Notes under the pieces: generated by a model
The model's database searches: none
What the model was told of the DNA's origin: nothing
The model's input: only the letters and a program-made list of their open reading frames with translations
Program-made: the position numbers and the translations under genes
Shown here: positions 15,122 to 49,377 of the stretch, piece by piece
How positions within the stretch are numbered: the first letter of the stretch is position 1
Layout of the letters: each line of letters starts with the position of its first letter
DNA from: Phycisphaerales bacterium
Lineage (GTDB): Bacteria > Planctomycetota > Phycisphaerae > Phycisphaerales > UBA1924
Direction: 5' to 3'
Assembly (NCBI GenBank): GCA_035627955.1
Contig: DASPKU010000002.1
Span: 22,277 to 86,276 of the forward strand
Length of the DNA: 64,000 bases

Positions 15122-15505
15122 ATGCCCGCGCTGATCATCACCGAAGGCAAGCAGAAGGGTCTTTTCCTGCCCCTGGGCCACAGCACGGCCGTGGTGGGTC
15201 GCGACCCCGCGATCGCGCTCCAGATCGAGGACCAGCTCGCCTCCCGCAAGCACTGCCAGGTCCGATTCGACGAGACCCGCAACGGCTACGTTCTGACGGA
15301 CATGAAGAGCGCCAACGGCACCAGGATCAACGATCGCGTCATCACCGGCGAGACGGTGCTCAACGACGACGACGAGATCACGATCGGCTCCACCAAGCTG
15401 CTGTTCACCATGTCCACCCCCGCGGACGGCCCCAGCGCCATGGAAGTCCTCAAGAGCGCCCGCGAACGCCACCACAGCACCATCGCCAGCCCGACGCGCC
15501 GGTAA
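15122..15505 (+). CDS. FHA domain-containing protein
   Basis: ...AVVGRDPAIALQIEDQLASRKHCQV...GYVLTDMKSANGTRINDRVI...DDDEITIG is the canonical FHA signature (GR...SR.H...NGT..N). Confidence 0.85.
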   Translation: MPALIITEGKQKGLFLPLGHSTAVVGRDPAIALQIEDQLASRKHCQVRFDETRNGYVLTDMKSANGTRINDRVITGETVLNDDDEITIGSTKLLFTMSTPADGPSAMEVLKSARERHHSTIASPTRR

Positions 15506-15507
15506 GG

Positions 15508-15598
15508 CCCCGTCACTTCGTTCCGGGCTCGTTCCGAACGGGCAAGCACATACTCACGCGACAGCCGTTCGGGACGAGCCCCGAACGAAGTGAGTGGG
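15508..15598. repeat. 'GAGCCCCGAACGAAGTGAG' palindromic element, locus A (two inverted arms of about 33 nt)
   Basis: cccgtcacttcgttccgggctcgttccgaacgg (15508-15540), then a spacer, then ccgttcgggacgagccccgaacgaagtgagtggg (15565-15598). The same arm sequence recurs at 23973, 26012 and 38555-38777. Confidence 0.85.
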
Positions 15599-15668
15599 CT
15601 TACTGCACTCGTCCTCGATAATGGCCTTTCCCCTTCGCCTTTACCGCATTGCTGGTAGCCTGTGCCCC

Positions 15669-21198: not shown

Positions 21199-21298
21199 GG
21201 AAGGCTAGGGTGCCACCGAGATGCCTTCATCTCGGTGGTCTCTACCGGCTGGGGCGTCCTATGCCTCCTCTGCACTCCTCTGAGTCCTATCCGCACCC

Positions 21299-22048
21299 TC
21301 AGCAGCTATGCCCCCCGATCACCCTGAAGAAACTCTCAATGTCCTGGTCGGTCGCGATATCCCCATCCCCGTTGAAGTCCGCGCTCCCGCACGACTGGCA
21401 GCACGACCCGCCGATGCACGCAAAGAACGCCTCAATGTCCTGGTCGGTCGCGGCGTCGCCGTCGCCGTTGTAGTCCGCGCTCCCGCACGAACTCCCGCGC
21501 ACCTCGACGCTCACCGCCACGCCCTCCTGGCACGACCACTGCCCGTCATTGCCGCGAAGGGCCACGTACCCCGAGGCCGAACCCGACCAGTTCCACACCG
21601 GGTTGCGCCGCAGCGGCGTCGCGCTCTCCGCGACGATCCAGTAGCTCTGCCCCGCCCCCAACATCAAGTTCTCTTCGCACGCCAGCGCGTGCCGCACCGG
21701 CTGCCAGGGCACTGGGGCCACCGAACACACCCAGCTCACCAGCGGCTCGGGCGACGGGCCGATGCCGTCGCCATCATTGTCCATGTCCGCTCGCAGCGTC
21801 ACGTTCAGCGTCGGCGCGATCTCCTGCCCGGCCGTCGTGTTGCACATCAGCCACAGCGAGACTTCGCTCACCGAGCAGTTGCGATCGGGCGTGAAGCGGA
21901 TCGCCACCGACTGGGCGTCCCACACATCAAACCCCGTCACGCCCATGGGTCCGCCGAAGGGGTCGCCCGTTGAATAGATCGGCTCATCCGCCGCGGCGAT
22001 CGGGCACACCAGCGGCACGCAGGCCACGAACAGAAGGGCTCGGTGCAT
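21299..22048 (-). CDS. secreted protein with a duplicated C-terminal GC-type dockerin-like module
   Basis: Signal peptide MHRALLFVACVPLVCPIAAA. The tail is CGSADYNGDGDAATDQDIEAFFACIGGSCCQSCGSADFNGDGDIATDQDIESFFRVIGGHSC (EF-hand/dockerin-like DxNxDGxxxxxD, twice). Confidence 0.65.
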   Translation of the reverse strand: MHRALLFVACVPLVCPIAAADEPIYSTGDPFGGPMGVTGFDVWDAQSVAIRFTPDRNCSVSEVSLWLMCNTTAGQEIAPTLNVTLRADMDNDGDGIGPSPEPLVSWVCSVAPVPWQPVRHALACEENLMLGAGQSYWIVAESATPLRRNPVWNWSGSASGYVALRGNDGQWSCQEGVAVSVEVRGSSCGSADYNGDGDAATDQDIEAFFACIGGSCCQSCGSADFNGDGDIATDQDIESFFRVIGGHSC

Positions 22049-23811: not shown

Positions 23812-23972
23812 TGGATAAGCCTCCGGAACCGCCCGGAATCCGAGCGGGCCGGAGTATAGCTCTTGGGTACCCCGCCGCTCCGCGGCGGCTCTTCCCGCGT
23901 GCCATTGCGTCTCAAGCGTGCCATGGCGACGTCTTCGTCGCTATGTCCTCGCACGGCACCCAACTTCCTGGC

Positions 23973-24072
23973 CCGTTCGCAACGAGCCCCGAACGAAGTG
24001 AGTGGGCGGTGCACGCCTTGCGCGCCGTTGGCGGGAAGGCCCGTCACTTCGTTCCGGGCTCGTTCCGAACGG
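23973..24072. repeat. 'GAGCCCCGAACGAAGTGAG' palindromic element, locus B
   Basis: ccgttcgcaacgagccccgaacgaagtgagtggg (23973-24006) and cccgtcacttcgttccgggctcgttccgaacgg (24040-24072). The right arm supplies the last roughly 9 codons (..VRNEPGTK) of the nuclease-like CDS. Confidence 0.85.
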
Positions 24073-25102
24073 TCGCCGTGTTCCCCGCGCCCGCCGCTTC
24101 CCCCTCCACCGCCCCGTCATACCTCACAAAGTCATCGACATCCTTCTGCGTCGGCTCCGCGCTCTCCCACGCCGCCCGGTACATCGCCCCCAGCATCGAC
24201 GCCCCGCTCGCCAGCCGCTTCTCGATGAACTCCTTGCCCCTCGCCTGCTCCAGCTCGCCCGTCTTCTTCAGCTCGTACAGCGGCTCGACCTCCACGAACG
24301 AGGTCTCCAGGTAGTTCAGCACGTCCTCCCACGGCGCCCGCGCCTCCACCTGCACCTTGCCGTCGACAAACTTCCGCACGTCCGAAGCCTTGATGCGGTG
24401 GTGCGTGATGATCTTGCCGTCGATGTACGAGTGAAAGCCGCGGTCGGTGGTGTAGCCCTTGGGGTTCTCGCCGACCCAGCCGTGGTGGTGCTTGGTCATG
24501 TGCAGCGGCTGGGCCGCGTCGCCCACGTAGTGCGAGAGCACGCCCATGTTGTAGATCGCGTTCTCCTTGGCGAGCTGCAGCTGGTGCGCCCGGCGCGGGT
24601 CGTTGAGCTTCTCGAGCACGCGCACGGTCAGGAACGCGTTCTGCACCTTCGCGTACTGCTCGGTGATGCCGTAGGGGAGGAAGCCGGGCAGCTCGTCGGT
24701 CTTCGCCGTGTCGCGCGCGGGGTTCACGGGCCGCCCCTTGAAGTCCTTGCCGGCGCGCTCCTTGGCGAGCGCCATCGCCTTCACGTACTCGTACCGCAGC
24801 GTCGGCAGCGTCTTGAGGCTCAGCCCGTACGGCGCGAGATCCTCGACATCCAGGTAGTGCTCGGGGTTGTTCAGGTGCGTGAGCTGGTTGATCTTCGTGC
24901 CACGCCAGCGGTCCGGCACCACGGCCCCATCGGCCACCTTCTTGATCGTCTCCTCGCCCTTCAGCCACTCGGGCCCGCCCCTCATCGACTCCACCGCCAG
25001 CGTCGTGATCAGCCGGTGGCCGTAGGCGTCCCACCCGAGGGCCGGCAGGGCCACGCACGCGGTCACAAACGCACTCAGCAGCACCTTGGAAACCGTTCGC
25101 AT
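24044..25102 (-). CDS. S1/P1-type zinc nuclease / zinc phospholipase C superfamily protein (secreted)
   Basis: Signal peptide MRTVSKVLLSAFVTACVALPALG, followed by a mature N-terminus WDAYGH (W-x-x-x-G-H). HYVGDAAQPLH matches the family's H..GD..QPLH metal motif. Confidence 0.6.
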   Translation of the reverse strand: MRTVSKVLLSAFVTACVALPALGWDAYGHRLITTLAVESMRGGPEWLKGEETIKKVADGAVVPDRWRGTKINQLTHLNNPEHYLDVEDLAPYGLSLKTLPTLRYEYVKAMALAKERAGKDFKGRPVNPARDTAKTDELPGFLPYGITEQYAKVQNAFLTVRVLEKLNDPRRAHQLQLAKENAIYNMGVLSHYVGDAAQPLHMTKHHHGWVGENPKGYTTDRGFHSYIDGKIITHHRIKASDVRKFVDGKVQVEARAPWEDVLNYLETSFVEVEPLYELKKTGELEQARGKEFIEKRLASGASMLGAMYRAAWESAEPTQKDVDDFVRYDGAVEGEAAGAGNTATVRNEPGTK

Positions 25103-26001: not shown

Positions 26002-26011
26002 GCGCAACGAT

Positions 26012-26109
26012 CGTTCGTAACGAGCCCCGAACGAAGTGAGCGGGCAGGGTCTTCACCGGCGCACATCGCGCAAAGAACCCGTCACTGCGTTCCGGGCTCG
26101 TTCCGAACG
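26012..26109. repeat. 'GAGCCCCGAACGAAGTGAG' palindromic element, locus C
   Basis: cgttcgtaacgagccccgaacgaagtgagcggg (26012-26044) and cccgtcactgcgttccgggctcgttccgaacg (26078-26109), in a convergent gap. Confidence 0.85.
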
Positions 26110-26127
26110 TCACCGCCTACACACGCC

Positions 26128-33195: not shown

Positions 33196-34326
33196 ATGGC
33201 CTACGCCGTGCTCGCCCGCCGTTACCGTTCCCAGGAGTTTGCCGAGGTGGTCGGCCAGCAGGCCATCGCCAACACCCTGGCCAACGCCATTAAGGCCAAC
33301 CGCGTCGCCCACGCCTACCTCTTCGTCGGCACCCGCGGCGTTGGCAAGACCACCATGGCCCGCCTCTTCGCCAAGGCCCTCAACGGCGGCTCCCCCGAGA
33401 TCGACGCCCTCATCATGAAGGGCCACGACACCGACGTCATCGAGATCGACGCCGCCAGCAACAACTCCGTCGAGCAGGCCCGCGAGCTGATCGCCAACTC
33501 CGTCTACAAGCCCCTCCGCGGCAAGTACAAGGTCTACATCATCGACGAGGTCCACATGCTCTCGACCGCGGCGTTCAACGCCCTGCTCAAGACCATGGAG
33601 GAGCCCCCCGAGCACGTCGTGTTCATCCTCTGCACCACCGAGACCCACAAGGTCCCCGCCACCATTCAGTCCCGCTGCCAGCGCTTCGACTTCCGCAATA
33701 TCCCTTCGTCGCTGGTCGCCGAGCACCTCACCCGCGTCATCAAGGACGAGAAGCTCACCGCGGACCCCGAGCTCGTGCACCTGGTCGCCCACCTGGGCAA
33801 CGGCTCGATGCGCGACTCTCTCACGCTGCTCGAACGGCTGATCGCCTCGGGCCAGACGCACCTCACAGTCAAGCTGCTGGAGGAGCTGCTGGGCCTGCCC
33901 GAGCGGAGCGTGTTGTCGGACCTCATTGACGCCCTCGCCAGCGGCGACCCGGCCGTCGCGCTCGCCAAGGGCGCCGACATGCTCTCGCGCGGGATCGGCA
34001 TCGACCAGCTGCTCGAGACCCTGCTGCACCGCCTCCGCGACCTGATGATCATCGCCGCGTGCGGCCCGCAGACGCCGCTGGTAGAGCTCTCGGACTCCGC
34101 CCGCAAGGACGAGGTCGAGCGGGCCGGCAAGTTCGACGCCGCGGGCCTGGTGCACATGATCGCCCTGTGCGAGAACGTGCAGCGGGCGGCGAAGAACTCC
34201 GCCGTGCCGCGGGCCCTGCTCGACGCCTTGCTGGTGCGATTGGCGATGACAGACAAGATCGCGGACATCACCGCCGTGATGGCCGGCGCCCCGCGCAACG
34301 GAGCCGCTCCAGCAAAAAAACGCTGA
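33196..34326 (+). CDS. dnaX: DNA polymerase III subunit gamma/tau, zero-frame product (gamma-length, domains I-III)
   Basis: AHAYLFVGTRGVGKTT Walker A, IIDEVHML, SRCQRF sensor. The frame ends ...APAKKR-TGA immediately after the A AAA AAA heptamer at 34314-34320. Confidence 0.9.
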   Translation: MAYAVLARRYRSQEFAEVVGQQAIANTLANAIKANRVAHAYLFVGTRGVGKTTMARLFAKALNGGSPEIDALIMKGHDTDVIEIDAASNNSVEQARELIANSVYKPLRGKYKVYIIDEVHMLSTAAFNALLKTMEEPPEHVVFILCTTETHKVPATIQSRCQRFDFRNIPSSLVAEHLTRVIKDEKLTADPELVHLVAHLGNGSMRDSLTLLERLIASGQTHLTVKLLEELLGLPERSVLSDLIDALASGDPAVALAKGADMLSRGIGIDQLLETLLHRLRDLMIIAACGPQTPLVELSDSARKDEVERAGKFDAAGLVHMIALCENVQRAAKNSAVPRALLDALLVRLAMTDKIADITAVMAGAPRNGAAPAKKR

Positions 34327-34928
34327 CGGCGACAGGTGTCCTGGGTGGCACCGGTCTCCCGACCGGTGTTCCAAAGCCTGCCGCCGTTCCCGCGCCTGCA
34401 CCCCTCGCCCCACGCCCCGCGGCCGCGCCACCCGCGATGCGCCCCGCCGCACCCACGCGCCACGAGGTCGAGGCCAAGCCGCCCATTTCCGGCGTCACGC
34501 GTTTGCCCGGCAACCTGCCTGAGGACCCCGTCGCCCTCTGGAACATGGTGACCGAGGCGTGCCAGAAGCAGCACCGCATGCGGATCCTGGTGGGCAGCCT
34601 CAAGCTCGTCACCAAGGACGAGCACAAGGCCGTGCTCGAGGTCTCCGACGAGATGCGGACCGCCGCCCAGTCCGCCGAGCGCGACCTGTGCACGCTGCTG
34701 AGCATCGCCTGGGGCCAGAACCTCGCTATCGAGCTCAAGACCGCCAGCGGCGAGAAGGTCGAGCCCCTCCCCAAACCCGCCGCTGCCACCACTTCGCCGG
34801 GCGCCGCACCCAACCCACCCGCCACGCCAACTACCCCCATTAGCGACCATCCGCTGATCAAGCAGGCCACCGAGCTCTTCGGCGCCAAGATCATCAGCAC
34901 CCAGCCGCGGAAGAAGCAGGGGGAGTGA
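34314..34928 (+). CDS. dnaX: dnaX tau-specific C-terminal region, readable only after a -1 shift at 34314-34320
   Basis: The -1 frame continues KKTLTATG...Pro/Ala linker...WNMVTEACQKQHRMRILVGSLKLV...DHPLIKQATELFGAKIIS. That is a typical tau domain IV/V and the conserved DnaX C-terminal tail. Confidence 0.7.
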   Translation, partial: KKTLTATGVLGGTGLPTGVPKPAAVPAPAPLAPRPAAAPPAMRPAAPTRHEVEAKPPISGVTRLPGNLPEDPVALWNMVTEACQKQHRMRILVGSLKLVTKDEHKAVLEVSDEMRTAAQSAERDLCTLLSIAWGQNLAIELKTASGEKVEPLPKPAAATTSPGAAPNPPATPTTPISDHPLIKQATELFGAKIISTQPRKKQGE

Positions 34929-34975
34929 AGCACAGCTCCCGGGCGGTTCAGCTGCTACTGCCGCTCGCCTGCCTC

Positions 34976-35400
34976 GGGCTCCGAAGGAGCCCCGGAGTGT
35001 TGCCACCAGTGGAGCAAGCGGCGCTTCGCCGCGAGCGCAACTGGTGGAAGGCAGGCCCCTCATATACCTTCCTTCCTTCGCATGCCGCTCCAACGGAGCG
35101 GCGGAGGGCCCAGGCCCCCGCCGCACGCCCCTGTCCTCCTCCCCCGCCCCCGCTCCAACGGAGCGCCGGAGTGTTGCCACCAGTGGAGCGCAGCCGCGCT
35201 TCGCGGCAAGCGCAACTGGTGGAAGGCAGGCCCACCCCTTACCTTCCTTTCTCTGCTTACCCGCTCCAACGGAGCGCCGGAGGGCCCAGGCCCCCGCCGC
35301 ACGCCTCTGTCCTCCTCCCCCGCCCCCGCTCCGAAGGAGCCCCGGAGTGTTGCCACCAGTGGAGCAAGCGGCGCTTCGCCGCGAGCGCAACTGGTGGAAA
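34976..35400 (+). repeat. array of three REP units of about 75 nt at a period of about 176 bp
   Basis: The units begin near 34976, 35151 and 35328. Each contains a GCTCC-GAAG/AACG-GGAGC hairpin, then CGGAGTGTTG, then CCACCAGTGGAGC...GCGCAACTGGTGG (an 8-bp stem enclosing an inner GCGGCG-CTTC-GCCGC hairpin). The inter-unit segments are also repeated. Confidence 0.85.
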
Positions 35401-35460
35401 ACAGCCCCCTCCATTACCCTCCCCCTTCCCATTGCGCTCCAACGGAGCGGCGGAGGGCCC

Positions 35461-35913
35461 ATGGCCGGCACATTCTCCCAGCTCCTGCTCCACGTTGTCT
35501 TCTCGACGAAACGCCGCGACCCCTGGATCACAGCCGAGATCGCACCAAGGCTCCATTCCTACATGGGCGGCATTGTGCGGGCCGAAAAAGGAACGGCCCT
35601 GAACATCAACGGCGTTGACGACCACGTGCACATGTACATCCGCTGGCGTCCCGACGTGTGCATCTCCGACCTCATGCGGGTGGTGAAGTCCCGCTCCTCA
35701 GCCTGGGTCCATGACGAGTTCCCCCGGCTCAGCCGCTTCGCCTGGCAGGAGGGCTACGCCGCGTTCACCGTGAGCAAGTCGCAGGAGCCGGCAGTCATGC
35801 GCTACATCGATACGCAAGCCGAGCACCACCAGAAGATGGACTTCCGCACGGAGTACCTGCAATTGCTGCGAGCGCATGACTGTGAGTTTGATGAGCGGTA
35901 TGTGTTCGACTGA
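35461..35913 (+). CDS. REP-associated tyrosine transposase (RAYT; IS200/IS605 Y1 HUH family)
   Basis: LLLHVVFSTKRRDPWI N-terminus, HUH motif DDHVHMYI, and catalytic Tyr motif RYIDTQ. 150 aa, flanked by REPs. Confidence 0.85.
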   Translation: MAGTFSQLLLHVVFSTKRRDPWITAEIAPRLHSYMGGIVRAEKGTALNINGVDDHVHMYIRWRPDVCISDLMRVVKSRSSAWVHDEFPRLSRFAWQEGYAAFTVSKSQEPAVMRYIDTQAEHHQKMDFRTEYLQLLRAHDCEFDERYVFD

Positions 35914-35916
35914 ACT

Positions 35917-35938
35917 CCTCCGCCCCTGAAGGGGCGGA
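35917..35938 (+). terminator. hairpin immediately after the RAYT stop
   Basis: ctccgcccc-tgaa-ggggcggag, a perfect 9-bp stem 4 nt after the TGA. No U tract follows (it is followed by agcaaaagaag). Confidence 0.4.
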
Positions 35939-35972
35939 GAGCAAAAGAAGACAGGGGTTTGGGGCGTGCCCA

Positions 35973-36048
35973 CCTTCCACCAGTTGCGCTCGCCGCGAAG
36001 CGCGGCGTCGCTCCACTGGTGGCAACACTCCGGGGCTCCTTCGGAGCC
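35973..36048 (-). repeat. REP unit in inverted orientation downstream of RAYT
   Basis: ccttccaccagttgcgctcgccgcgaagcgcggcgtcgctccactggtggcaacactccggggctccttcggagcc is the reverse complement of the upstream REP consensus. Confidence 0.85.
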
Positions 36049-36121
36049 GGGGACACAGATGCTGACTTAGAACCAAATTTCTGGCGCAAGCCCGCCCCCA
36101 GCCTCAGAGACGGCGCGCCAC

Positions 36122-38496: not shown

Positions 38497-38554
38497 AGGG
38501 GCAAGGGTACACCGGCAGAATGAGTGGGTAGCTCGCGAGGGTCACCACGGAGGA

Positions 38555-38777
38555 CGTTCGCAACGAGCCCCGAACGAAGTGAGCGGGCCGCGCCGCCCTC
38601 GTCACAGGTTACTCGGGGAACCCGTCACTGCGTTCCGGGCTCGTATCGAACGGGCACGCTGCTGTCCCGCGCGAATGTCGTTCGCAACGAGCCCCGAACG
38701 AAGTGAGCGGGCCGTGCTGCCCTCGTCGCCGATTCTCCGAAGGACCCGACACTGCGTTCCGGGCTCGTATCGAACGG
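38555..38777. repeat. 'GAGCCCCGAACGAAGTGAG' palindromic element, locus D: two complete hairpin units in tandem (period 124 bp)
   Basis: Arms at 38555-38587, 38621-38653, 38679-38711 and 38745-38777. The two forward arms are identical, and the spacers are also related. Confidence 0.9.
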
Positions 38778-38785
38778 GCAAGGCC

Positions 38786-45032: not shown

Positions 45033-48000
45033 TCACCCGACCTCTTCACACCCGACCTCAACCTCCACCAGATCACCACACCCATCGCGCACGCTGCCGT
45101 CCGCTGCGATCACCCGCGTGCTCCACTGTTGCCGCTCGCGCACGTTCGGGGGCAGCGGCAGCGGCTCGATGCGCTCCCCGGGGATGGGGGCCGGCAACGG
45201 ATCGATCACCCCCGAGTCCGCGATCATGAGAGCGCGGGTGTAGAAGTCCTCGATCTGCTCGTACACCGCGTCCCGCCGCGTGATCCGCGGCACGACCCAG
45301 AGCGACGGCAGGCCTTCGACCATCCGGCGGTGCTCGATCAGGTGGGCGATGCCGTCGCGGACCCGGTCGAAGCCGTGCCGGCCCGTGAGAGCGGCATAGG
45401 TCATTGCGTCCTCGGCGAGCAGATCGATGCTGACGATGTCGACGCGTGCAGCAAGGACCTCGCGGGCCGCGCTGACGCCCTCGATCAGCGGCGTGCGCAG
45501 GTGCACGCCCACCGCCCCCGCGCCGCGGGCGACCTCCACCAGCCGCAGGGCGTCATCGAGTGAGTCGCCGTGATCCACAATGGTCACGCACGGCGTGCCG
45601 CCGGTGCGGCACAGCTGCTCCAGCAGCTCGTCGTTGCGCCCGCCAGCATGGACGGTGATGTGCTCGGGAGCGCCCCGCCAGCCGTGCAGCGCATCAGCGA
45701 CGGCCGCGCACCCCGCGCCCTGCACACGCCCGTACACGCGCCGGACCATCTCCAGCCGCTCGGGCGAATCCGGCACGCACCGCAGCAGCAGGTCGCGCAC
45801 CTTGGGCTCAACGCTCACGCACACGGGCTTGGCGATCGGGTCCATCTGCGGCGCATGCGGCAAGTAGCCGATCAGCCCGCCGATGCTCGCCAGCGGCGTG
45901 TTCGCCGCGCTCAGCTCCGCCAGCACCCGCCGCGACACCACGCACGCGCCCAGCCCCGGGGGCGCGTGCGCGAACGTGAGTTCGTGGGCCTCGGGCCGCT
46001 CCAGGTGCCGCTCGATCACACCATCAACCAGTGCCGGATCAACCAGCGACCACGCGGCCCCCACAAACGCCGCGCTCGCGAGCCCCCGCCGCTCCATCGC
46101 CGGCGCCGCCACCCGGGGCGACACCGCCTCGTCATAACACGAGAGGTTCGCCAGCCCACCCCGCCAGCAGTGCCGGGCCCACAGCCGCCCGACCCCCACG
46201 CCGCGCGTGCGATCGCGCAGCATTCCGCCGTCGATCGGCTCGAACTCCACGCGCAGCCCCGCCGGAGCCCGCCCCACCAGCTCGCGGGCGACCTCGACAT
46301 CCGGGCACAGCAGCAGCACGCCCGCGACCCGCCCGCACCGCGCCAACCGCGCGAGCGTCGCCTGCAGCAGGTTGACGCCGGGCGTCAGCTCCGCCCCAAG
46401 GTCCCGCGGCAGGCCGATGTTGCCAACATCGGTATCGACATGAGCGATCACCCAGAGGCGACCCTCACCTGCATTCAAAGTACGAGGCCGGCGCGCAAGC
46501 TCCGGACGATTCTCTTCGTTGCAATCAGATGTGCCGCGCGTTTCTTTCGAGGATTCCCGCGCACTCCCCGCCCATACCCCCCGCACCAGCTTCTCCGCCG
46601 CCTCCTCCAGCAGCCCGCCCACATACTCCGCCGCGTCCGCGAGCCACCGCACGTTCACAAGATCGCGCTCGATCTCCCGCTTCTGCTTCTCCATGGGCGA
46701 CAGCGTCGGGTCAATCTGAATCGCCCGGTCCGCACGGTACCGCTTGAACTGCCCCGTCTGGTTCACCCACTGCACGATGCCGAACGCCACCTCCGCCGCG
46801 GCCTCCTTCGCCATGCCGCTCACCCGCTCGATCAACCGGTTCACCCGCGCCTGATCCTGCTGGTGCTCGAGCATTTCCTCCAGCACCTCCCCCGCCTCCC
46901 GCCCCAGCGCCGCGATCCGCCCCGTGCTCTCCCGCAGCGAAGCAAGCCGCGAGCGCACAGCGTCCAGGCGTTTGGAAAGCGCACCGCCCTCCAGTCCCGC
47001 CGGCGTCCCGGGCACGCGCATCGGCTCCCGCGCGTGCGCCTCCAGCGCCTCGTGCAGCGTCATCACCCGCGTGTGCTGCTTCAGCACCCCGCCCTCGGTG
47101 GCATCGATCGTCGTCAGCCCCCGTGCCGCGTCGCTCATGAACTCGCGCTCGAACTGCACGAGGTACGTCGACATCTGCTCGTCGGTGTAGATCGGCCGCC
47201 CCTGCTGGTCCTGCACCTTCCGCAGCAGCGGCCGCATGCGGGCGATCCGCTGCCACTCCAGCATCTCCAGCGTGTTGAACTCGTTCAGCTCGCCCGACCA
47301 CACCTGGTGGATCGCCGCGCCCGGGGCGTAGTACTGCCCATCCGTGAACCCCAGGTCCTGCCCGATGAGCACGACAGGATCACACCCCATGTGCCGCGCC
47401 AGGTAGTACGCCAGGTGCGCCACCGTCGCCCCCGGCGGGATGTACCGGTCCTGGTGGCACCGGTCTCCCGACCGGTGCTCCTGCCCACCATCGACACCGG
47501 TCAGGAGACCGGTGCCACCAAGAATCCCGTCCAGCACCACGTCCCCCGCGCACCGCACCGCCCCCGGGAATGCCTCCAGGATCGCCCGGTTGCACTTGGG
47601 CTCCGCCACCAGGGTGACGCCCTCGACATCCGCGCCCATCAGCCCCTCATAGAACCGCCGCGAGATCTCGTGATAATCCAGCGCCGTCACAAAGTGCGGC
47701 CTGATCCCCTTGGCCAGCAGCGTCTTCAGCACCGTCTGCACCGCGATGATCACCACCCGATCCCGCACGCCCGGGCGCGCCAGCAGCTCGACATTCCGCC
47801 GAAGGCTCGGCCCCGCCGAAACCACCACCGCCGGCTTCCCCTTGCACGCGTCCTTCAGGTCCGCCACCCCCGGCACCGTCGCGTACCACGCAAGGTTCAG
47901 CAGCAGGTTCCGCAGCGTCTGGTCCACCTGCACCAGCGTCGTCATCACATTCGTCCGCACGGCCCGCATCACCGTCGTGAACGCCGCGCCAAACCGCTCG

Positions 48001-48533
48001 CCCGCGTCCCCGATCCGCGCCTTGCTCGCAGGGTGGTCCACCAGCGTCGTCCCCGCGGCCAGCACGGCCTCGATCCCGCTCGTCGCCGCGGCGATCGCCC
48101 CCGTGTCGTCCGCATCCGTCACCACCGCCACATTCGACACCGCCAGCCACGAGCAGTCCAGCCGCTCCAGCACCGCCCGCAGCAGCGCCACATCCGGCTC
48201 GAACACCACCACCGCCCCGTGACCCTTCAGCCGCTTCGCCAGCGCCGCAACATGATGCCCCAGCCCGAACCCGCGCACCACCACCGCCGCGCTCGCGCCG
48301 ATATCAATCGACTGCGCGAACTTCTCCGCCTCCGCCAGCGGCGCCCGCAAGCTCGCCAGCTGCCGCCCGTTCAGACTCCCCGTCACCCCTCCATCAGGCG
48401 CAACCAGCAGCCCCAGCCCCGCGCAAGGCCCAGCCGCGCGCACCGCCTCCACCGCCCGCGCCGACCGCCCCCGCAGCAGCCGCAGGTTCTTCTCCAGCCG
48501 CTCCCGGCTTGGCCCCGGCACCGCACTGTCCAT
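45033..48533 (-). CDS. Maf-family (DUF115 / MptE-like) putative nonulosonic-acid glycosyltransferase with a C-terminal extension of about 500 aa
   Basis: N-terminal LEKNLRLL. Core motif KPAVVVSAGPSLRRNVELL...VIIAVQTVLKTLLAKGIRPHFVTALDYHE...VLIGQDLGF. ATG chosen at 48531-48533 (an alternative lies at 48569). The extension shows nucleotidyltransferase-like and TIM-barrel-like segments; that assignment is my inference only. Confidence 0.75.
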   Translation of the reverse strand: MDSAVPGPSRERLEKNLRLLRGRSARAVEAVRAAGPCAGLGLLVAPDGGVTGSLNGRQLASLRAPLAEAEKFAQSIDIGASAAVVVRGFGLGHHVAALAKRLKGHGAVVVFEPDVALLRAVLERLDCSWLAVSNVAVVTDADDTGAIAAATSGIEAVLAAGTTLVDHPASKARIGDAGERFGAAFTTVMRAVRTNVMTTLVQVDQTLRNLLLNLAWYATVPGVADLKDACKGKPAVVVSAGPSLRRNVELLARPGVRDRVVIIAVQTVLKTLLAKGIRPHFVTALDYHEISRRFYEGLMGADVEGVTLVAEPKCNRAILEAFPGAVRCAGDVVLDGILGGTGLLTGVDGGQEHRSGDRCHQDRYIPPGATVAHLAYYLARHMGCDPVVLIGQDLGFTDGQYYAPGAAIHQVWSGELNEFNTLEMLEWQRIARMRPLLRKVQDQQGRPIYTDEQMSTYLVQFEREFMSDAARGLTTIDATEGGVLKQHTRVMTLHEALEAHAREPMRVPGTPAGLEGGALSKRLDAVRSRLASLRESTGRIAALGREAGEVLEEMLEHQQDQARVNRLIERVSGMAKEAAAEVAFGIVQWVNQTGQFKRYRADRAIQIDPTLSPMEKQKREIERDLVNVRWLADAAEYVGGLLEEAAEKLVRGVWAGSARESSKETRGTSDCNEENRPELARRPRTLNAGEGRLWVIAHVDTDVGNIGLPRDLGAELTPGVNLLQATLARLARCGRVAGVLLLCPDVEVARELVGRAPAGLRVEFEPIDGGMLRDRTRGVGVGRLWARHCWRGGLANLSCYDEAVSPRVAAPAMERRGLASAAFVGAAWSLVDPALVDGVIERHLERPEAHELTFAHAPPGLGACVVSRRVLAELSAANTPLASIGGLIGYLPHAPQMDPIAKPVCVSVEPKVRDLLLRCVPDSPERLEMVRRVYGRVQGAGCAAVADALHGWRGAPEHITVHAGGRNDELLEQLCRTGGTPCVTIVDHGDSLDDALRLVEVARGAGAVGVHLRTPLIEGVSAAREVLAARVDIVSIDLLAEDAMTYAALTGRHGFDRVRDGIAHLIEHRRMVEGLPSLWVVPRITRRDAVYEQIEDFYTRALMIADSGVIDPLPAPIPGERIEPLPLPPNVRERQQWSTRVIAADGSVRDGCGDLVEVEVGCEEVG

Positions 48534-48675
48534 CCTTCCCGCCAATCGCGCCTCCCCCTTGAACCTCATGAACCCCCACGCCCTTCGCGCGGTACAACTC
48601 CACGGCCAGCCCATGGCACAACCCGGGCGCACGGCGCCCCGCCTTGTGATCGGCCGTCCGCCAAAGGACACTGGA

Positions 48676-49377
48676 ATGATGCCAAACTCCCGCCCGCTGT
48701 CCCGCCTGCTACCCCCCGTGCTCGCCTGCACCCCACTGCTCCTCGCCGCGCCCGCCCTCGCCCAGGCCCGCCTTGACGCCGAGGCCCCCACGCCCCTCAA
48801 CCCGCCCAACCCGCTGATCCACTACACCCTCGAGAACCCCTGGCCACTCGCCATCCTTCTGATCGTCGTCGCCCTCATCCTCTACTTCTCTCTCAGCGCG
48901 CGCGACCCCAAGAAGGCCCGCCGCCTCGCCCCCATCCCCCTGCTGCTCGCCATCGCGTGCATCGGCGCGGGCTACGCCATCACCACCGCCCGCGAGCAGG
49001 TCCGCAACCTCACCAAGGCCCTCGTCACCAGCGTCGCCACCGGCGACGGCCCCGCCGTCGACCGCGCCCTCACCCCCTCCGCCCGTCTCTTCTCCCCCGC
49101 CACCCCCGCCGGCATGGACAAAGACCAGATCATCAACCGCGTGCAGACCATGCTCGGCCCCAACGGCGTCGTTCGCGTCGACGATCTCGCCGTGCTCGAA
49201 GCACAGGTGGACGCCTCCTCCAAGGACCGCGCGCTGGTGCAGGTCAAGGTCCGCGTCACCGCCCAGGGCACACCCGTCATCTCCTGGTGGCGCCTCGACG
49301 CCGTCCCCGCCGGCAACACCTGGCAGTTCTCCGGCATCAAGTTCATCTCCGCCAACTGGAACATCCCGGGCGTCTAG
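48676..49377 (+). CDS. hypothetical membrane-anchored protein
   Basis: ATG at 48676, a signal/TM segment (LLPPVLACTPLLLAAPALAQA) and two further TM helices. The C-terminal domain (about 120 aa) is of unknown family. Confidence 0.5.
   Translation: MMPNSRPLSRLLPPVLACTPLLLAAPALAQARLDAEAPTPLNPPNPLIHYTLENPWPLAILLIVVALILYFSLSARDPKKARRLAPIPLLLAIACIGAGYAITTAREQVRNLTKALVTSVATGDGPAVDRALTPSARLFSPATPAGMDKDQIINRVQTMLGPNGVVRVDDLAVLEAQVDASSKDRALVQVKVRVTAQGTPVISWWRLDAVPAGNTWQFSGIKFISANWNIPGV

Follow-up and report, generated by a model that had tools for sequence, protein, structure and literature searches.

The 64,000-nt stretch of a Phycisphaerales genome analysed in this work (hereafter the window) carries three exact copies of a 25-nt palindromic module, GGTGGCACCGGTCTCCYGACCGGTG, one inside the clamp-loader gene dnaX and two inside a gene for a large Maf-like protein. 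These copies belong to a genome-wide family of short hairpins that is found within many unrelated genes, where nearly all copies are read in the same codon phase. The module is probably a non-autonomous hairpin element of the repetitive extragenic palindrome (REP) type, which has expanded in this species and is tolerated, in that one phase, in permissive loops of proteins. The source genome (G000; 4.26 Mb, 68% GC, 23 contigs) is a metagenome-type assembly of a planctomycete, and it was compared with the three others of its genus, labelled G001, G002 and G003. Positions of the features in the window are collected in Table 1.

A hairpin family embedded in genes in one codon phase

An initial annotation, made from the letters of the window, had reported the 25-mer in dnaX and in the Maf-like gene, the latter with an inverted second copy that formed a palindrome of 25-nt arms around a 17-nt spacer. 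Exact matches were found at all three places, the number expected by chance being 0 (100 shuffles). The two plus-strand copies also have the upstream gtcctg in common, with one extra g in dnaX as had been stated, but in the Maf-like gene the shared stretch starts at 47448 and not at 47446. The dnaX copy consists of a GTGG tag followed by the hairpin CACCGGTC-TCCC-GACCGGTG, and together with its weakly conserved flanks it spans about 34338-34373.

A genome-wide search at ≤4 mismatches, a check that the initial annotation had proposed, recovered 46-47 copies spread over 35 sites; they occur in either orientation, both between and within genes. Among the 45 copies with ≤2 mismatches, 34 (76%) match exactly one of two master sequences, which differ in the loop only (TCCC versus TCCT). 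The relatives hold 0-3 degenerate copies each (40 related genomes), and the family is private to this soil planctomycete. Its logo shows an invariant 25-nt core with a weak tGcCyTT upstream and a yTCC downstream that is partly complementary to the 5' GGTGG; from this, the effective unit measures about 30 nt (10 codons). The stem has 8 perfect base pairs, or 10 with wobble pairs, and a 4-nt loop (TCCY). The GTGG tag, directly 5' of the stem, is invariant in 45-47 of 47 copies, and compensatory stem variants (CCCCGGTC/GACCGGGG and CACTGGTC/GACCAGTG) occur among the copies.

Doublets are present at only five of the 35 sites. All five are convergent, tag-outward (tail-to-tail) pairs, in each of which a spacer (10-28 nt) separates a TCCC arm from a TCCT arm; the remaining sites are singlets or tandem copies. 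Tandem arrays with a period of 30-39 nt are found at several sites, and tandem and half-unit duplications at, for example, those in the genes for IleRS, CoaE and the glycogen-debranching enzyme. At 22 of 30 single-orientation sites (p = 0.026) the strand with the tag is the one locally richer in C, as judged by the sign of the GC skew, which is weakly suggestive of a strand-specific process. The duplex energy between the two flanks is the same for the family as for random positions (mean -9.8 versus -9.9 kcal/mol, p = 0.65), so insertion into pre-existing hairpin loops was rejected as a family trait; the dnaX site alone stands out. A target-site duplication was likewise rejected, as the upstream tGcCyTT and the downstream yTCCt form a weak consensus and are not per-copy duplicates. 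The class known as miniature inverted-repeat transposable elements, characterised by terminal inverted repeats and a target-site duplication, was ruled out, the element being 25-37 nt long, against 70-500 bp for that class, and its flanks not being duplicated. Two intergenic copies, at C1:55209 and C12:227345 (contig:position), directly follow apparent tRNA 3' ends (ggttcgaatcc.. and ggttcaagcc..), a terminator-like position.

To score the location of the copies, we used a frame test based on GC content at third codon positions, which calls a copy embedded in coding sequence when one open frame with coding-type composition extends on both of its sides. By this classifier 24 of 46 copies (52%) are embedded, compared with 56% of 1000 random 25-mers and 0-20% in eight further hairpin families that the genome contains; among these eight, the two that flank genes for REP-associated tyrosine transposases (RAYTs) are both at 0%. 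By inspection, 22 of the 35 sites (~63%) are intragenic and about one third intergenic. The intragenic share of the module equals the random expectation, unlike that of the other hairpin families of the genome. The hosts named by curated models are Fmt, AroD/E, ClpB, PheT, SdhA, PDH-E2, GuaA, NuoF, NadA, IleRS, CoaE (at its N-terminal edge), NuoN, the glycogen-debranching enzyme, a RarA-like ATPase, a RluD-like synthase, RimO and ThrRS, while SucD was identified from solved structures. The hosts are mainly housekeeping genes. Most of them have no paralogue in the genome, and the module-bearing genes must therefore be functional.

None of the six frames of the module contains a stop codon, and the readings KVAPVSRPV, HRSGDRCHQ and APVGRPVPP are each used once. 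At 22 of 22 intragenic sites the first copy is divided into the codons GGT GGC ACC GGT CTC CCG ACC GGT, for which the probability, at one in three per site, is ~3e-11. Counting every intragenic copy, 28 of 29 are in one codon phase, the exception being the second arm in the Maf-like gene, and all of them keep the reading frame of the host. Orientation relative to the host gene is without bias (14 sense and 8 antisense sites, p = 0.29); the sense peptide is GGTGLPTG(V/A)P and the antisense one xTG(R/Q)ETGAT. A sortase motif was rejected by inspection, LPTG not being LPXTG.

Insertions in variable loops and their decay in congeners

Comparison with homologues shows the module as an insertion. 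At the module, SucD has ~12 residues more than E. coli SucD, and GuaA has ~32 residues more than every solved GMP synthase, with the alignment breaking exactly at the module pair; both inserts coincide with gaps when aligned to solved structures. The module is absent from 11 of 11 Maf-like orthologs and 9 of 9 SucD orthologs; 15 further host sites, recovered in the three congeners with a concatenated query, contain no intact module either. In each of the 17 host sites aligned with congeners, the position is a loop of variable length. The alignment of orthologs suggested in the initial annotation is in line with a lineage-specific insertion for dnaX too, two of the three congener genes having no module and the third a decayed copy. 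Distant orthologs with the same residues but without the palindrome, which would have indicated a conserved protein motif, were not found. SucD (C21:45152-46132) also contains a 16-aa insert (PKTGSGESGADPYTNAG) relative to the E. coli protein; it is kept across the whole family of relatives, so it is a lineage trait of greater age that has nothing to do with the module.

Codon alignments revealed eroded copies at identical codons of congener genes: ClpB and ThrRS in G002, NuoF in G002 and G003, and dnaX in G003. Relative to the master sequence, the congener copies carry 5 substitutions and an indel in ClpB, 6 substitutions in ThrRS and 5 in dnaX (16 in total), as against 0 in the copies here; the synonymous difference in the flanks of these genes is 0.07-0.39. 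Three states exist at one codon of SdhA, namely the module here, a 57-nt related variant hairpin in G001 and an empty site in G002 (GGC GGT/AAG, the slash marking the junction). The flanks in SdhA (C4:49104-50984) show a 7% synonymous difference from G001 and G002, compared with 13-53% in other hosts; this low divergence could be due to very strong codon constraint or to recent gene exchange. The AroE copy was considered as an ancient one in common with GGCGGC-type hits in G001 and G002, and this was rejected, those hits being intergenic and non-orthologous.

Genes for Y1 transposases (PF01797) number nine in the source genome, three in G001, five in G003 and none in G002, the congener with the most remnants. 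REPIN populations, that is, those of REP doublets forming hairpins, are reported to erode in number and in master match after loss of the RAYT (bioRxiv 10.1101/2021.07.10.451892). The erosion of the module copies appears to track Y1 loss in a way that matches this decay, although it is a single comparison and a correlation only. Of the Y1 genes, the RAYT of the window comes nearest to a module copy, lying 1.1 kb downstream of the one in dnaX; its flanking repeat belongs to another family. That repeat has ~30 copies genome-wide, none of them intragenic, and its reverse complement holds TGGTGGCAAC, resembling the module's TGGTGGCACC.

The copies in dnaX and in the Maf-like gene

The dnaX gene is read in two frames. 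The 0 frame (33196-34326) encodes a 376-aa gamma-like product with clamp-loader domains I-III, and the -1 frame (34320-34928) adds ~200 aa, comprising a linker and the conserved tau C-terminal domain. A TGA at 34324-34326 stops the 0 frame two codons past a run of seven adenines (A7) and upstream of the module, which is read as GGTGLPTG(V) in the -1 (tau) frame only. The frameshift context, GC A_AAA_AAA CGC TGA at 34312-34326, is accompanied by a Shine-Dalgarno (SD)-like motif upstream and a hairpin downstream. The four genomes of the genus do not differ in the string AAAAAAA CGC TGA, and each has the conserved tau C-terminal domain in the -1 frame; three further relatives have an A7 or A8 run with a nearby stop. 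In all seven related genomes GGAG or GGGG lies 9-11 nt upstream and a hairpin begins 4-6 nt downstream. Annotation would split such a gene; gene callers will do so with the dnaX described here, and may mis-handle other module-bearing genes.

The hairpin of the window has basal stems at 34325-34331/34382-34388 and 34333-34337/34376-34380, and the module forms its apical part, 34342-34373. When the module was removed in silico, a 12-bp stem, GACGGCGACAGG/CCTGCCGCCGTT, stayed (-20 to -23 kcal/mol), and the flank complementarity of -20.4 kcal/mol is the strongest among the 35 sites. In G001 and G002 dnaX has the hairpin without the module, while in G003 an eroded module sits at the same apex, its stem kept via G.U pairs. 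As relatives have the hairpin but no module, the element seems to have landed in the loop of a pre-existing stimulator. The A7 run with its flanking stimulators would favour ribosomal over transcriptional slippage. The module adds length to the -1 frameshift stimulator presumed here and may shift the ratio of tau to gamma. A known RNA family was rejected for the dnaX site, where Rfam gave no match above threshold and sub-threshold chance hits only.

For two-ORF (open reading frame) dnaX genes, the part of the survey by Antonov et al. (2013, PMC3711429) drawn on here describes gamma as the standard product and recoding as needed for tau. The gene in the window resembles those described there in the A-run at the end of domain III, the 0-frame stop just after it and the need of a -1 shift for tau; Phycisphaerales is not among the genera named in that part, the full list of the survey having 12. 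The SD-like GGAG ~10 nt upstream and the stem-loop 4-6 nt downstream resemble the signal of E. coli dnaX. Unlike in the known two-ORF genes, the apex of the stimulator is a putative REP insertion in two of the four species.

The second host gene encodes a protein of the motility-accessory-factor (Maf) or MptE-like type (DUF115), not a Maf nucleotide pyrophosphatase. Its MptE-like domain covers residues 301-490, and the module pair, at about residues 431-453, lies within it. Copies 2 and 3 form a tail-to-tail C/T heterodimer with a spacer at 47478-47494, and the pair folds as one long hairpin (47453-47519; -82 kcal/mol, z = -9.7). The initial annotation had read GGTGL(P/L)TGV in both proteins. 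This stands for the tau frame of dnaX and for copy 3 of the Maf-like gene, which is read in sense (47519 to 47495) as GGTGLLTGV; the gene is on the minus strand, and this peptide therefore comes from the inverted copy. It does not stand for copy 2, identical to that of dnaX, which is antisense, off the usual phase and reads HRSGDRCHQ. The net insert amounts to +51 nt relative to two congeners and +42 nt relative to the third. In an AlphaFold model of the domain (12 sequences; predicted template modelling score 0.78), the core has a predicted local distance difference test (pLDDT) score of ~90, and a coil of low pLDDT at residues 163-182 of the model (block means 36-43), the sole internal one at the site, coincides with the module pair (161-183). 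The structure prediction, also proposed in the initial annotation, places the pair in a presumably disordered loop between well-folded elements.

Table 1. Features of the window: positions, strands and basis of assignment.
Feature	Position	Strand	Basis or description
dnaX, two-frame gene	33196..34928	+	Pfam DNA_pol3_delta2, DNAX_ATPase_lid, DNA_pol3_gamma3; ORFs; conserved -1-frame tails in congeners
SD-like GGAG	34300-34303	+	10 nt upstream of the A7 run
A7 run, slippery heptamer A_AAA_AAA in the correct phase for a -1 shift	34314..34320	+	Sequence; confirmed in independent assemblies
Extended RNA hairpin, starting 4 nt past the slippery run	34321..34394	+	Fold, -43.4 kcal/mol, z = -3.8
Module copy 1, loop type TCCC	34344..34368	+	Exact match, family logo, translation
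REPtron	34970-36055		Three direct ~175-nt units and one inverted unit
IS200-like Y1 (RAYT) gene of the REPtron	35470-35913		
Host gene 2, 1258-aa Maf-like protein	45033..48809	-	Pfam PF01973, E = 3e-33
Module copy 2, loop type TCCC	47453..47477	+	Exact match; antisense to the minus-strand host gene
Module copy 3, loop type TCCT	47495..47519	-	Exact match; sense in the minus-strand host gene

Origin of the module and its place among known repeats

From these results, a scheme for the origin of the module may be proposed. The family would have grown in this Phycisphaerales species and been held near the two master sequences, its copies most likely being moved in single-stranded DNA form by a trans-acting enzyme, one of the nine IS200-like Y1 (RAYT-type) transposases, by analogy with REPs and REPINs. 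In the favoured phase either orientation would add a short, flexible, hydrophilic peptide rich in Gly, Thr and Pro; copies in this phase within permissive surface loops or linkers of mostly single-copy proteins would be tolerated, and others presumably purged. In the Maf-like gene the result would be a tail-to-tail dimer in a disordered loop of the MptE-like domain. In dnaX the copy belongs to the linker specific to tau, and in the transcript it would occupy the apical loop of a stem-loop 4 nt past A_AAA_AAA. The size of the family, its occurrence in both orientations and the insert-free orthologs support the earlier proposal of a small palindrome tolerated in coding regions, and suggest that it has been mobile. 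Exaptation, raised there as the alternative to tolerance, is hinted at by the place of one copy in the dnaX frameshift hairpin alone.

Several observations weigh against this scheme. The module flanks none of the nine Y1 genes here, and each strong RAYT candidate has another flanking hairpin; a REPtron of the module's own was rejected on this ground. Some insertions are as old as the congener split and yet pristine here, so a simple recent transposition fails unless copies were re-seeded, converted or kept under constraint. Divergence of the host loops (net length differences of 21, 27, 51 nt and others) leaves neither a target-site duplication nor a clean empty site definable in the congener comparisons; with congener synonymous differences of 0.07-0.53 and variable loops, the exact boundaries of the inserts cannot be fixed. 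No presence/absence polymorphism was seen in two metagenome assemblies, though contigs hide rare variants. The sharp drop in conservation from the invariant core to the weakly conserved flanks finds no explanation in the scheme, and the single metatranscriptome with shared words had none of the organism's sequence at the locus.

The phase and the loop location might also be set by targeted insertion beside GGYGG(C/T) and not by later selection, which we regard as a possible but less likely explanation. At the 68% GC of this genome, most such motifs are pairs of Gly codons read in phase and located in flexible loops; the host would then have supplied some of the GGTGG "tag", and insertion would have been directed again to old remnants. 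Y1 enzymes of the IS200/IS605 type insert 3' of a short specific motif, and the empty sites of congeners often end in Gly at the junction (SdhA in G002, TCC GGC GGT/AAG; E2 in G003, TGG GGC GGT/), further junctions being CGC GGC/ for RluD in G001, GGC/ for IleRS and ..AAG/ for dnaX in G001 and G002. The junction test is, however, partly circular, since the placement of gaps by the aligner favours Gly-to-Gly matches, and NuoN, GuaA (in G001) and several antisense sites have no GGYGG motif. Targeting would account for two different hairpin inserts at one SdhA codon, here and in G001, with G002 empty and the flanks only 7% divergent at synonymous sites, as well as for the tandem and half-unit duplications at IleRS, CoaE and the debranching enzyme; the intergenic copies, on the other hand, have no codon context. 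A bolder combination, in which insertion beside GGYGGC is specific to codon phase, the copies are kept pristine by a trans-acting Y1 transposase and the dnaX apex has been co-opted to set the tau:gamma ratio, seems unlikely to us.

Spread or maintenance of identical copies by homologous recombination, gene conversion or replication slippage at hairpins, with no dedicated transposase, is improbable. It would suit the copies at congener-shared sites, which are pristine here and have at least 16 substitutions in congeners, the lack of a module-flanked RAYT and the slippage-type half-unit tandem duplications in IleRS. Nevertheless, conversion of the RecA type would work poorly on 25 nt of core between divergent flanks, conversion creates no new sites, exact copies with Y1 present and decay without it are the behaviour of REPIN-RAYT systems, and the strand bias relative to GC skew would not be expected. 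We find it very doubtful that the module is kept for a function of the host, be it a protein motif, a hairpin pausing ribosome or polymerase, a binding site or, in dnaX, a selected part of the stimulator. The module does cap a conserved stimulatory hairpin in dnaX, and the decayed copy in G003 keeps its stem via G.U wobble, pointing to constraint at the RNA level. Compensatory stem variants and the retention of GGT codons, disfavoured in the genome and drifting to GGC or GGG in G002, agree with a host function as well. Yet within genes the two orientations are about equally frequent and encode peptides that have nothing in common, the hosts share no function, a third of the sites fall between genes, orthologs including the dnaX of G001 and G002 do without the module, and flank complementarity is no property of the family. 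An artefact of sequencing or assembly, such as an adaptor or a chimeric join, is effectively refuted. Short exact repeats can mislead assemblers, and the genome is a 23-contig assembly of metagenome type, but independent Logan assemblies of two soil-metagenome runs reproduced the A7 run and every junction between unique flank and module with zero differences. The copies, moreover, vary, including compensatory changes, all intragenic ones keep the reading frame, and other species, whose genomes were assembled separately, have decayed copies at the same codons.

The proposed REP-type element has close counterparts in the GTAG superfamily of REPs, which includes intragenic "REP-decorated" proteins and a GTGG-tagged family, GTAG-20, in Opitutus terrae of the Planctomycetes-Verrucomicrobia-Chlamydiae superphylum (Di Nocera et al. 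2013, PMC3733652). As in that superfamily, the module is a stem-loop of 20-40 nt with an unpaired 5' GT(A/G)G tag, a stem of 6-9 bp and a short loop, it has compensatory sub-families and tail-to-tail dimers with variable spacers, heterodimers among them, and several families coexist in one genome. Copies in genes for tRNA synthetases, pseudouridine synthases and replication proteins, adding ~10 aa as a single unit and 20-30 aa as a dimer, are likewise common to both (PMC3733652). Unlike the published GTAG REPs, half to two thirds of the copies here are intragenic, compared with a minority there; 28 of 29 are in one phase, no RAYT gene has the module at its borders and one copy lies in the recoding hairpin of dnaX. 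Of the traits of REPs, the module has the repeated short stem-loop, the GTGG tag and the inverted heterodimers, but not a mainly extragenic location or an association with RAYTs.

As in REPIN-RAYT systems (PMC3116915; bioRxiv 10.1101/2021.07.10.451892), many exact masters are found with Y1 present and erosion in relatives without it, copies are inherited vertically at orthologous sites, and inverted doublets form long hairpins. REPINs, however, are described as extragenic (Bertels and Rainey 2011, PMC3116915), and the module occurs mostly as singlets or tandems and has no flanking RAYT. The Rickettsia palindromic elements (RPEs; Ogata et al. 2000), as summarised in PMC10969869 and PMC3733652, are in-frame palindromes in many housekeeping genes, with nearly half of the copies intragenic. 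The module resembles them in being inserted in frame in many unrelated functional genes (22 sites here) and in adding a loop peptide thought to be compatible with the fold. It differs in size and in its tag: RPE-1 has ~100-150 bp and adds 30-50 aa, and the short RPE-4 and RPE-6 are CGTC-tagged, against ~30 nt and GTGG for the module. RPEs have no known transposase, and their host is an AT-rich obligate intracellular alphaproteobacterium, whereas the module lives in a free-living planctomycete of 68% GC. Intragenic REPs and RPEs have already been described, and the module belongs to a known class, the intragenic GTAG-type REPs, being functionally RPE-like. Its standout features are the random-level intragenic share, the single codon phase, the erosion at orthologous sites in a congener without Y1 genes and the copy in the dnaX hairpin.

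These findings extend the phenomenon of RPEs and of the REP-decorated proteins of Opitutus to a free-living, GC-rich planctomycete. The genome offers an internal contrast, as among nine hairpin families and nine Y1 transposases one family alone is found inside essential genes, always in one codon phase, and the rules of tolerated in-frame insertion (peptide chemistry, loop location, targeting versus selection) can be compared within a single genome. The eroded copies and the Y1-less congener constitute a natural experiment on REP maintenance, and the copy in dnaX gives a tangible example of a mobile hairpin within a programmed frameshift signal, which it possibly tunes. If insertion were targeted, the element would be a transposon adding a ready-made flexible loop to proteins.

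At least eight other hairpin or REP-like families coexist with the module, for example at 15504-15599, 23965-24077, 26003-26115 and 38546-38782 of the window. The family CACCGAGATG..CATCTCGGTGGCACG has ~106 copies, TGGGTACCCCGCCGCTCCGCGGCGGCT ~71 and AACGAGCCCCGAACGAAGTGAGCGGGC ~60, the last flanking a second Y1 gene at C2:108718; the family TGGGTACCCC is 20% coding-embedded, above the others. The commonest repeated 30-mer, GGCACCGACCAGGACATCGAGGCGTTCTTC, has ~170 copies and belongs to a coding repeat, ..DFNGDGD.GTDQDIEAFFACLGG, found at 21291-21482 of the window and genome-wide; many proteins contain it, probably as a calcium-binding or dockerin-like module.

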